Source: Escherichia coli (GTDB taxonomy: Bacteria > Pseudomonadota > Gammaproteobacteria > Enterobacterales > Enterobacteriaceae). Taken from it: DNA of 64,000 bases. Location of the stretch: NCBI RefSeq assembly GCF_044324785.1, contig NZ_CP172127.1, one strand, 5' to 3'. The notes beneath the pieces are model-generated. The model was given only the letters and a program-made list of their open reading frames with translations, searched no databases and was not told the origin of the DNA. Positions 7,186 to 9,750 of the stretch are shown here, one piece after another (the stretch's first letter is position 1; each line of letters opens with the position of its first letter). The position numbers and the translations under genes are program-made.

Positions 7186-8036
7186 AAGGGAGATGAAAAA
7201 GGCAATAGCAGAACTGAGTGACAGTGAAACCATTCTGGCGTACAGGGTTGGATGGTGAAACTGATAAAAAACCCCCTCTGAAATTCTGTCAGAGGGGCTA
7301 GTCAATAAGGGAATAATATTCAACATGAAGATGTCTTCTGGGAATGTTTATATAGCAAATGCTTTCACTCCGGTAATTAATTTCCGTGATTAACTGCTTT
7401 CGATCAATAAAGGAATTGCAAAAGTGTGATCTTGTTCACGACATCGTGGATAATAATATGCCTGATGTCTGAATCCGGAAACAGTGCTCTGGCGGGTTTC
7501 ATGTGAAGTTGACGGATAAAAAATCCGCACGACCAGACAGACGTGCGGTTTACGAAATTCGTAACAAGAGGCTTTTCTACGGATCACGTGGTGCGTGCCA
7601 CGTGAAATTTTTGTAGCGCAAAATGTGTGATGTGTAAATACAAGGAAGGAAAAAAGTTAAATCGGTGGAAGTCCATACCTGCCACGTGTACGTCTGCATT
7701 CCTCGTTTTGAACAGAATTCTCACCAGACATCGTGAATTTCTCATTCAATCATCAGAGATATTAACCAGGATTTTTATTGTTTTGTGATATCAGCAGTGC
7801 AGGTATACAGACATTAAAGTAATCAGGTTTATTATAACCACCTTTACAAAGTTGTATGTGTTTATAATTTAAGGATTTTAATGCCAGTCGTTTTCTGCTG
7901 CTTAAATTGAGGTCGCATATTATACACAATAATATTCCTGGCATTATTAAATTAATAAAAGAGGATTCTTATCACTGTATTTTTGCTCCGCACTACCGTT
8001 CTGGCTGGTGAAGTAATAATACAGGAGAATAACAGA

Positions 8037-9233
8037 ATGCTTAAAAGACGTGATGCTTTTTTAAAGAAAAGCGCGCTGGCAGTGAGTGTGGCCCTGCTAC
8101 TCTCATCTCAGGCTCAGGCTCAGGCTCAGGCTCAGGCTCAGGCTCAGGCTCATAAAACACTTACTGAGTCATCGACGGGTATTATCTGGATTGATAATGG
8201 AACTCAGTCACTTGAAAGTGCAAGTGTGATTGACAGAAATGGAAATGCTAACGATGGTGGTAGTGTTACTGTTACTGGAAAAAACTTTGCTGTTGGTTCC
8301 GATGCAAAAATTTGGGATGCGGATAAATCCATGGCAGTGGGACATAAGACAGCTGTTTTTAATGCAGACAACAGTGTCGCTCTGGGGTATGGCTCTCAGG
8401 TGAATGGAGAAAGCAATGTACTTTCTGTAGGGGCCGGTCCTTCAGGATATGGATTTTCAGTTGATGGTGCACCGGAAACCCGCCGGATTATAAATGTTTC
8501 AGATGGTGTTAAGGATAGTGATGCGGCCACAAAAGGACAGATGGACAACGCCATTGCAGATGCTGTACGGGTGTCGGGGGATGCCCTGCGCGGTGAGATA
8601 GGCGGTGTATACAGAGATGCCCGTGCTCATACTGACAGTCAGGTTACAGCAGTACGTGATGAACTCAGCAGGGATATTATTGCAGGCACATCGGCAGCGG
8701 TGGCGTATACGGATGCATCTTCTCTTGCTCTTCAGGATGAAATAAAAGAAAAAGCGGATGAAACAGTTCAGGTTTCCCGGGCTTATACAGATAAAAGTGT
8801 ACGGGATGTCCGTAAAGAAGCGAAAAGCCAGGCAGAACATCTCAGCGATGTGCTTGTGAAGAACAGGGCGCAGACGGATGCAGCAATAGCCTCAAATACA
8901 GCAGCGATAAGGAATAACAGTCATCGTCTGGATTTGACGGAAGCCTGGCAGAAGATGGCGACAGAGAGAATGAATAATATGCAGGAGCAGATTAAAGAGA
9001 ACCGGAAGGAGTTAAGGGAGAGTGCAGCCCAGAGCGCGGCACTGGCCGGTCTTTTCCAGCCATACAGTGTTGGAAAATTTAACGCGACAGCAGCCGTTGG
9101 TGGTTACCGTGATGAGCAGGCCATTGCGGTGGGCGTGGGCTACCGTTTCACAGAGAATGTGGCAGGAAAAGTTGCAGTTGCTGCAGGTGGGTCATCCGCA
9201 TCGTGGAATGCTGGTGTGAATTTTGAGTTCTGA
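8037..9233 (+). CDS. Trimeric autotransporter adhesin (YadA-like, type Vc)
   Basis: Signal peptide, coiled-coil stalk, C-terminal YadA-type membrane anchor (...[23 protein letters not shown]...GVNFEF); RBS GGAG before ATG 8037. Confidence 0.8.
8109..8150 (+). repeat. Hexanucleotide repeat (CAGGCT)x7 encoding (QA)7 at the signal-peptide end of the adhesin
   Basis: Seven perfect tandem CAGGCT units read directly in the sequence. Confidence 0.9.
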
Positions 9234-9255
9234 CAGGTCAGGATTTAGATATCTG

Positions 9256-9277
9256 TCCCGGGGGGAGTCCCCCGGGA
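9256..9277. terminator. GC-rich hairpin downstream of the adhesin gene (TCCCGGGGGGAGTCCCCCGGGA)
   Basis: Perfect 10-bp inverted repeat 23 nt after the stop; no clear U-tract, so it may instead be a regulatory hairpin. Confidence 0.4.
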
Positions 9278-9294
9278 TATAATGAGGTACAGAG

Positions 9295-9750
9295 ATGCTG
9301 GATATAATCCTGGCGACGAGAGATATTTATTTTGAAAAAGCCCTGCGAGAGATATTTGGAACCGTAAGCAGTCGAATCAGATATATAGAAGATGCCATAT
9401 CAGACAGAAGAAGGGTGCAGTCAGGCAGGTCATTCAGATATTATTTTGTATTCTGTGATGATGAGTATACAGATATTGTTCGTATTCTTTTTACCGGAGA
9501 GGCCTGCTGTATTCTGAATAAGTCGATGCTGAATCTGAGAGCGGCCGGAGGTGTGTTGACGCTGGAAGAGCGCAGAGCGGTACTGAACCGGTATTACAGA
9601 GGTTTAAGTATTGCGGAGATTACAGAAGAGACGGGGCAGAATGACAAGACGGTATACGGTCATCTTCGTCGTGCACTGCAGCGGTCTGGATTCCGGAAGG
9701 GGCGTTTTATAAAGGGGAGAGAAGCGGCGGGGGATTCAGGTGTTGAATAA
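9295..9750 (+). CDS. Small HTH transcriptional regulator (sigma-70 region-4/LuxR-type HTH at C-terminus)
   Basis: 151 aa; C-terminal LTLEERRAVLNRYYRGLSIAEITEETGQNDKTVYGHLRRAL resembles a region-4-type HTH; immediately downstream of the adhesin. Confidence 0.5.
   Translation: MLDIILATRDIYFEKALREIFGTVSSRIRYIEDAISDRRRVQSGRSFRYYFVFCDDEYTDIVRILFTGEACCILNKSMLNLRAAGGVLTLEERRAVLNRYYRGLSIAEITEETGQNDKTVYGHLRRALQRSGFRKGRFIKGREAAGDSGVE

Follow-up and report, generated by a model that had tools for sequence, protein, structure and literature searches.

A short trimeric autotransporter adhesin gene with a polymorphic in-frame hexanucleotide repeat and a putative TosE-like regulator gene in an Escherichia coli island

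In a stretch of 64,000 nt of Escherichia coli DNA (contig NZ_CP172127.1, assembly GCF_044324785.1; the whole stretch is called the window), a gene for a trimeric autotransporter adhesin (TAA) carries seven copies of the hexanucleotide CAGGCT near its 5' end, and a gene for a small helix-turn-helix (HTH) protein stands directly behind it. The locus raises the question of what kind of adhesin this is, what the repeat does to it, and whether the HTH gene is an accidental neighbor or a regular partner. The answer that we consider fairly probable is a small mobile module of the Eib/YadA class, made up of the TAA, a G+C hairpin, a TosE-like regulator and one or two tiny open reading frames (ORFs) for membrane peptides, working by the mechanism proposed below. 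The adhesin gene was divided as follows.

8037-9233, plus strand: TAA gene, 398 aa, Eib/YadA class by Pfam, PDB and comparison with EibC
8037-8114, plus strand: predicted Sec-type signal peptide, from reading the sequence; the first A-x-A site is SQA and the cleavage position is presumed
8109-8150, plus strand: (CAGGCT)7 hexanucleotide repeat encoding (QA)7, polymorphic in copy number (Tandem Repeats Finder)
8151-8465, plus strand: head domain cassette of the HKTLTE... type, exchanged wholesale in other alleles
8466-8552, plus strand: neck or collar motif (YadA_stalk, aa 150-176), kept in alleles with other heads
8568-8666, plus strand: one copy of a 99-nt (33-aa) coiled-coil stalk repeat, which has 2, 3 or 4 copies elsewhere
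9054-9230, plus strand: YadA-type β-barrel membrane anchor, aa 340-398 (Pfam and PDB), nearly identical to the EibC anchor

The earlier note on this DNA had called the protein a YadA-like trimeric autotransporter, and this identification held. The 59 C-terminal residues (aa 340-398) matched the whole YadA_anchor model (PF03895, positions 1-60; E 2.4e-16), so that the C-terminus agrees with the YadA anchor profile, and the solved YadA anchor was matched with an E value of 1.2e-17 (PDB 2lme). The match of the neck to YadA_stalk was weak (E 1.1e-3, aa 150-176), as were two matches to YadA_head (E 0.027 and 0.085); the head repeats occupy aa 96-125. The NCBIfam YadA model NF033478 aligned with aa 74-397 (E 2e-22). 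Its score of 79.7 bits is far under the cut-off of 750, and the protein was classified as YadA-like rather than as YadA proper. RefSeq orthologues bear the name 'YadA-like family protein'. The 398 residues hold the parts of a TAA: after a predicted signal peptide come a small β-roll head, the neck, a stalk of coiled coil and the YadA anchor.

The gene start required correction. The ORF 7983-9233 is present, and the earlier note had begun the gene at 7983, where the ORF lister places a TTG start. The real start is almost certainly ATG 8037, because an AGGAG lies ahead of it at 8023-8027 and all RefSeq orthologues begin MLKRRD. By eye, the N-terminus then has a charged n-region, a hydrophobic core and A-x-A sites. 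The residues encoded by 8037-8075 resemble a twin-arginine motif with one extra residue. Export by the twin-arginine translocation (Tat) pathway was rejected, as the model TIGR01409 reached 14.1 bits against a cut-off of 16.7 and its match begins at residue 8, past the RR.

In a tblastn search of phage records the best relatives of the adhesin were EibC, EibD and EibE (36% identity over 73%). The adhesin is of the same size class as the Eib proteins (398 aa, against 392 aa for the eibA gene in its record), and over aa 85-398 (314 aa) it shares 38% identity with EibC (E 2e-48), with the anchor and the preceding helix nearly identical. The kinship is a distant one: the head and most of the stalk are unrelated to those of Eib, and the EibC sequence examined has no QA repeat. 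The settings differ as well: the window gene lies in a chromosomal island rich in insertion sequences (IS) by phosphotransferase system (PTS) and transketolase genes, whereas eib genes lie beside lambdoid tail-fibre genes. No phage genes are adjacent to the window adhesin locus. Some database relatives are labeled 'immunoglobulin-binding protein', which is annotation transfer; the match of the window adhesin to the EibD coiled-coil structure 2xzr is insignificant (E 0.15), so the label is not evidence of immunoglobulin binding. With the prophage context absent, the adhesin should not be filed as an Eib protein.

YadA of Yersinia shares the architecture of head, neck, coiled-coil stalk and four-strand anchor, the anchors are homologous, and the two proteins are 28-30% identical over about 290 aa. 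The yadA gene is plasmid-borne and activated by VirF, and it is not known to have a TosE-like partner. Judged by its sequence, the window adhesin is an uncharacterized member of the Eib/YadA class of short TAAs. No paper on this adhesin gene was found in the literature searched, and a 2025 review lists UpaG/EhaG, Eib and Saa as the only characterized E. coli TAAs (PMC12525524).

What does the repeat do? Tandem Repeats Finder gave (CAGGCT)7 a score of 92 with 100% matches, and matches of three units were observed 5 times against 0 expected from 100 shuffles. The encoded (QA)7 is in frame, right behind the hydrophobic core (...LLLSS) and at the predicted signal-peptidase site. The alleles observed at this place are QALA, QALAQA, (QA)3, (QA)4, (QA)5, (QA)6 and (QA)7. 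Among about 120 database relatives QALA was found in 72, QALAQA in 30, (QA)3 in 6, and (QA)4 and (QA)5 in 2 each. In strain BEN2908 the array is CAGGCT-TTGGCT-CAGGCT, which encodes QALAQA. The seven units of the window are the longest array among those compared.

The earlier note had advised comparing the repeat number across isolates, and it proved variable, with 4, 5, 6 and 7 units in 5.2-kb loci that are otherwise identical or nearly so. The locus with 4 units (L027) has 0 mismatches to the window over 5,197 nt and the one with 5 units (L026) has 3 substitutions, while TUM9754, with 6 units, has 3 mismatches in total across two aligned pieces. At the protein level, P0054, P0057 and P0111, with (QA)4, (QA)5 and QALA, are otherwise residue-for-residue equal to the window protein. 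Since near-identical loci differ in unit number, the array mutates faster than its flanks; (CAGGCT)n gains and loses units faster than the surrounding DNA gathers point mutations. The claim that slippage of a 6-nt unit alters length and not frame was also confirmed, as every observed allele is in frame. An on/off phase-variable contingency locus was ruled out on the same grounds, the 6-nt unit lying inside the ORF and all alleles being in frame.

The promoter repeats of NadA and the repeats of UspA1 and UspA2 are simple-sequence contingency loci of adhesins. They resemble the window array in being short tandem repeats, within an adhesin gene or close to one, whose copy number shifts by slippage. 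Those repeats, however, lie in promoters or 5' untranslated regions or shift the frame, and so act on/off or on expression level, whereas the 6-nt in-frame unit of the window changes only the length of a junction peptide.

As signal peptides usually have a short c-region, we expect that signal peptidase would cut close to the first or second QA unit. Any additional units would then make a flexible N-terminal tail on each head tip longer, with no on/off switching. The array was likely destabilized when the interrupting TTG (Leu) unit of an ancestral QALA or QALAQA was lost. We felt that a nearly neutral slippage hotspot is the most likely description of (CAGGCT)n.

The other way to see the array is as a functional rheostat, in which a longer or shorter c-region, or cleavage at one A-Q-A site instead of another, would adjust processing and export and give a graded amount of adhesin on the surface. 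The position speaks for it, right at the A-x-A signal-peptidase motif, where every unit adds an AQA site; so do the shifts of copy number over very short evolutionary time and the origin of pure QA arrays in at least two head lineages. The frequencies speak against it. The four commonest alleles (412 to 1,000 or more contigs each) all have the short, interrupted QALA or QALAQA, and arrays of 4-7 units are rare, each length being represented by one or two database sequences. Unit number differs, too, among copies that a resistance-gene insertion has inactivated, as neutral slippage predicts: two pseudogene copies with the same context and the same insertion (L003 and L004) have 2 and 3 units. 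A rheostat, argued from the sequence, therefore seems to us improbable. If the model of the module proposed here is right, the hexanucleotide array could also serve as a strain-typing marker.

Two further kinds of variation, like the true start codon, are absent from the earlier note. The 99-nt stalk repeat has 1-4 copies among the alleles (1 in the window, 2 in BEN2908 and in TUM9754, 4 in CFSAN061770; the tally of database alleles gave 1-3 copies), and the head between the QA array and the neck has at least three unrelated versions. On both sides of the head the sequence stays conserved: the promoter-proximal 87 nt and the signal peptide ahead of it, and the neck, C-terminal stalk, anchor and downstream gene behind it. 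All length changes of the adhesin gene are in frame, by units of 6 and 99 nt. The gene thus varies in three ways, by (CAGGCT)n, by the 99-nt stalk repeat and by exchange of the head. The stalk repeat would set the reach of the head from the cell, and swapping of the head would alter specificity or antigenicity.

In many complete E. coli genomes the 'VLTGPVD'-head allele is interrupted at its neck: a sul2 - aph(3'')-Ib - aph(6)-Id - tetR(A) resistance module breaks the gene there, and the HTH gene is lost. Of 60 sampled records 36 gave partial matches, most of them explained by this broken allele; two of these were inspected. The Prokaryotic Genome Annotation Pipeline names the remaining stump 'hypothetical protein' or 'Tat pathway signal sequence protein'.

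L003 4088-4900 and L004 4088-4900: resistance-cut 'VLTGPVD' allele, orthologous to window ~8037-8500

The second part of the question concerns the DNA behind the adhesin gene, which holds the following features.

9254-9279, plus strand: G+C hairpin with an 11-bp stem, a 4-nt loop and no U-tract (folding)
9295-9750, plus strand: 151-aa putative regulator of the TosE/ORF-156 family, with a truncated receiver-like domain and an HTH of LuxR/sigma-r4 type (Pfam, hhalign, BLASTP, AlphaFold2)
9740-9817, plus strand: unannotated 25-aa hydrophobic ORF (VLNNVSYIVISVLLLLFFVVFVTNG) that overlaps the HTH stop codon, candidate coding (exact copy in 7/7 related loci checked)
9862-9957, plus strand: unannotated 31-aa ORF with a single predicted transmembrane segment, candidate coding and possible ORF-60 counterpart (exact copy in 3/7 related loci)

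That an HTH protein is encoded directly past the GC hairpin was borne out, with the hairpin at 9254-9279, the ORF at 9295-9750 and a match to Sigma70_r4_2 at aa 87-130 (E 4e-7). The gap between the two genes is 61 nt. The 76-nt segment that holds the hairpin folds with -30.9 kcal/mol (z = -2.9). The window hairpin is not a canonical intrinsic terminator, because it has no U-tract, and it was not called by the terminator scan.

Relatives of the 151-aa protein were hard to find. Searched alone against 5.8 billion proteins plus 1.84 billion representatives, it gave only near-identical copies (from E. coli, plus one from Salmonella) and matches to the HTH alone, and tblastn against phages gave no match. 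The first lead was a weak full-length tblastn match (E 0.1) to a plasmid gene annotated 'sigma factor-like HTH'. The second was the GenBank record of phage P-EibC, with the order eibC, stem_loop, ORF-156C, ORF-60C, eaaC. Compared end to end by BLASTP, the 151-aa protein matched the plasmid protein with an E value of 5e-10 and ORF-156C with 4e-5, and these two are 33% identical to each other (E 2e-31). A profile search then yielded a family of 145-193-aa proteins in which every named match is from E. coli. When the family profile was built without the window protein, hhalign still joined the two with 96.9% probability (E 1.3e-10, 129 columns, aa 2-134).

TosE belongs to the same family; it and TosF are LuxR-family proteins whose genes follow the adhesin gene tosA in uropathogenic E. 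coli. The plasmid HTH gene follows a gene for an RTX-type (repeats-in-toxin) protein, and its locus resembles the chromosomal tos operon. In strain Nissle 1917 a 160-aa gene right after tosA takes the position of tosE in tosRCBDAEF; its product matched the family profile with an E value of 1e-49 and is 32% identical to ORF-156C. The window protein matched TosE over the full length (BLASTP E 8e-9, 22% identity) and TosF at the HTH only. The family is marked by the N-terminal motif M-x-I-I-L-A-T-R-N/D...E..L, by an Asp that never varies where strand 3 ends, and by a K-T-V of the recognition helix; the 151-aa protein agrees with these marks and has the invariant residues D55, G68 and K118-T119-V120. 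These matches class it as a divergent member of the TosE/ORF-156 family. The plasmid, E. coli M8-A, has in its tos-like locus (L008 2630-6012) genes for HlyD and an RTX-type repeat protein along with the TosE-like gene, and the place of tosF is taken by another HTH gene. This locus adjoins a PapB/FocB regulator gene and an autotransporter gene.

AlphaFold2, run from the alignment, predicted four beta-alpha units followed by a three-helix HTH (mean predicted local distance difference test score, pLDDT, 77.7); from the single sequence it was of no use (pLDDT 37). The top Foldseek matches in the PDB were FixJ, RcsB and StyR, all weak (E about 2e-3, template modeling score about 0.3). A true NarL/FixJ response regulator was ruled out, because only four strands precede the HTH and the last third of the receiver is missing; where an acidic pair would stand the protein has T8-R9-D10, and D55 alone is retained. 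On the predicted fold, the protein is read as a pseudo-receiver fused to a LuxR/sigma-r4 HTH. AutA/AutR (HyxA/HyxR), encoded beside UpaB, were tried as relatives and rejected (hhalign probabilities of 1.4% and 0.2%).

The earlier note did not recognize the pairing of an adhesin with such a regulator. The pairing is nevertheless recurrent. In the ECOR-9 records of eibA, eibC, eibD and eibE the order is always eib, stem_loop, ORF-156, followed by ORF-60 except in eibE. The context of eight further TosE/ORF-156 family members was inspected, and 4/8 lie 82-88 nt after a small YadA-anchor protein on the same strand, in prophages or plasmids (L011, L013, L017, L023). The gaps of three of these loci and of the eibC locus (L009, L011, L013, L017) folded into strong hairpins, and in these other TAA-HTH loci the hairpin occupies the same position as in the window, there with T-runs. 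TosE likewise stands directly 3' of its adhesin gene behind a hairpin. The repeated finding of TAA, hairpin and HTH gene across Eib and other small TAA loci, with its parallel at tosA, indicates a recurrent module.

The likeness extends beyond the regulator. Eib loci have a conserved small transmembrane ORF past the HTH gene, so that the order TAA, stem-loop, homologous HTH protein of about 155 aa, small transmembrane ORF is shared with the window. The ORF 9862-9957 aligns without gaps to the ORF-60-type transmembrane segment at 7 invariant positions (A..F.L.VW...V..L), which is only suggestive of a counterpart. The tos operon, with seven genes, is built differently: its adhesin, TosA, is an RTX protein secreted by the type I route, a PapB-type regulator (TosR) is included, and TosE is followed by a second regulator, TosF, which the window does not have. 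No paper linking TosE with ORF-156 of Eib prophages or with TAAs was found in the literature searched.

Does the module move? The features that bear on this are its borders and its leader.

~6632-10087, plus strand: mobile cassette with an IS remnant, the AT-rich leader, TAA gene, HTH gene and small ORFs (BLASTN against L028)
7601-8036, plus strand: AT-rich upstream region, presumed promoter or regulatory DNA (composition profile, GC 0.34)

When window 6037-11233 was aligned with the locus of another strain (L028) by BLASTN, the alignment was limited to 596-4051 of that reference, equal to window 6632-10087. Downstream, genes for YaiO and a hexapeptide transferase replace the MliC and NanE genes of the window. 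The same cassette thus stands in another neighborhood in another strain and moves as a unit.

The window itself is E. coli island DNA of a type that extraintestinal and avian pathogenic strains carry. A 2.4-kb segment around the adhesin and regulator genes had matches in 407/5,426 complete E. coli genomes, with at least 80% covered in 84, and many of the best-matching strains are poultry or human isolates. In BEN2908 and TUM9754 the pair is annotated as 'YadA-like family protein' and 'sigma factor-like helix-turn-helix DNA-binding protein', and it is flanked on one side by a PTS/split-transketolase operon with a transposase remnant and on the other by c-type lysozyme inhibitor and nanE-like genes. 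The surrounding island is rich in IS and bears ireA. The published tkt1 island of avian pathogenic E. coli (APEC) O1 was ruled out as its identity: tkt1 is full-length there and the ORFs are different, whereas the transketolase gene of the window island is split, which makes it another island.

The leader is distinct in composition. The GC content of 7601-8000 is 0.343, against about 0.45-0.55 in the surroundings. Window 7950 to ~8120 was matched at ~98% identity in 372/5,426 complete genomes, even where the head differs, and alleles with unlike heads conserve both the signal-peptide coding sequence and the last 87 nt before the adhesin start. The promoter scan placed just one sigma-70-like site in the upstream region, at 7808-7835, and such sites were no commoner than in shuffled sequence. 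The inverted-repeat scan of the 480 nt upstream of the adhesin gave only an AT-rich 11-nt pair at 7831-7868, and in Rfam nothing reached threshold over 6500-11000. The AT-rich leader probably exposes the module to H-NS-type silencing. Such silencing is plausible here because the tos operon is reported to be under H-NS and Lrp control (PMC5956150).

An island of this kind could also carry the module as a decaying passenger, never naturally expressed, with the HTH gene a relic and the repeat drifting in silent DNA. The island is indeed full of IS remnants and pseudogenes, the locus is present in just 372/5,426 complete genomes, and in many genomes the sul2-strAB-tetR(A) module has cut the gene with loss of the HTH gene. 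Against this, hundreds of sequences preserve the two ORFs intact with about 99% conservation, and the length changes, in 6-nt and 99-nt units, all keep the frame. One intact head takes the place of another, the mark of diversifying selection rather than of decay, and the invariant residues are retained across the HTH family. We regard decay as very unlikely.

In the mechanism proposed for the small mobile module, the adhesin, going by its predicted parts, would be exported by Sec, trimerize and be displayed as a short adhesin or autoagglutinin. The regulator would arise by read-through of the hairpin and would hence be made along with the adhesin. By analogy with TosE/TosF, it would adjust other programs, such as motility or other surface structures, and it would possibly feed back on the adhesin promoter. 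PapX of E. coli and MrpJ of Proteus mirabilis are motility repressors encoded at the 3' end of adhesin operons. They would share their logic with the module: a DNA-binding protein is produced alongside an adhesin and adjusts a further surface program. This is analogy only, as PapX and MrpJ belong to other protein families and their operons encode fimbriae rather than a TAA.

Several observations weigh against the proposed mechanism. Identity of the window regulator to TosE and to ORF-156 amounts to only ~22%, and it lacks a 15-residue linker segment, so transfer of function from them is weak. The function of TosE is itself poorly defined, and nothing on the function of ORF-156 was found in the literature searched. 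The hairpins of the Eib loci, unlike the window hairpin, bear a T-run and are terminator-like, which argues against simple co-transcription there. Between the window hairpin and the HTH ATG lies a TATAAT, so the regulator may have its own promoter. Finally, the family is not tied to adhesins alone: the remaining 4/8 inspected family members lie upstream of kpsF, near hpa/PerC genes or beside an IS, and tblastn upstream of the family members that have no neighboring TAA found no TAA remnant. At L019, L020, L024 and L025 (gene from 3001 to ~3500 in each) the TosE-family member lies ~450 nt upstream of kpsF in capsule region 1, a placement that hints at a link between the family and the capsule locus.

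The feedback step could also be the whole story, with the 151-aa protein acting solely as an autoregulator that activates or represses the adhesin promoter. The tight linkage on the same strand to TAA genes, in the window, the four ECOR-9 eib loci and the four further loci, fits this, as does the movement of the cassette as one unit. There is a precedent in the LuxR-type proteins AutA/AutR, encoded beside an autotransporter gene, which act on upaB (PMC4844996). These proteins, however, are not homologous to the TosE/ORF-156 family, and some members of that family have no adjacent adhesin. The phenotype reported for TosE/TosF is suppression of motility (PMC5956150, citing Engstrom 2014), and the 480 nt upstream of the adhesin offer a single inverted repeat, the AT-rich pair at 7831-7868. 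A purely local autoregulator appears doubtful to us.

A bolder version of the module, which we think unlikely, would make TosE/ORF-156 proteins a dedicated, E. coli-restricted class of pseudo-receiver/LuxR regulators that travel with non-fimbrial adhesin genes, namely those of TosA and the Eib-clade TAAs, and a tiny membrane peptide, and that reprogram motility, capsule or surface structures whenever the adhesin is transcribed. There (QA)n would, in the lineage of the window adhesin, also be a reversible, heritable dial on signal-peptide processing and thereby on the surface density of the adhesin.

A few neighboring features of the window were recorded in passing. Right after the cassette, on the minus strand, 10107-10445 encodes a 112-aa c-type lysozyme inhibitor of the MliC family (NCBIfam PRK13791, E 4e-46). 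The 1,165-aa ORF 29632-33129 corresponds by position to a TUM9754 protein annotated 'autotransporter outer membrane beta-barrel domain-containing protein', so the island appears to hold a classical autotransporter as well. Two more tandem arrays are present, one at 46012-46832 (36-bp unit, 22.8 copies, 91% matches) and one at 49955-50134 (61-bp unit, 2.9 copies, 90% identity). The ORF 46010-46846 on the minus strand, which lies over the 36-bp array, translates as a 12-aa repeat (TMVPVAPSLIFC).

None of these findings overturns current understanding. The link between TosE, ORF-156 and TAAs, together with the three-layer variability of the adhesin, is modestly new. If the proposal is true, the short TAAs of extraintestinal and avian pathogenic E. 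coli strains comprise, next to UpaG/EhaG, Saa and Eib, a fourth group that is missing from recent reviews (PMC12525524), and the three-way diversification of its adhesin would bear on adhesion specificity and on vaccines that employ it as an antigen. Eib-prophage ORF-156 genes, to which the GenBank records assign no function, would then be tied to TosE in one family, and coordination of adhesins with motility or with other surface structures would become testable in several systems.

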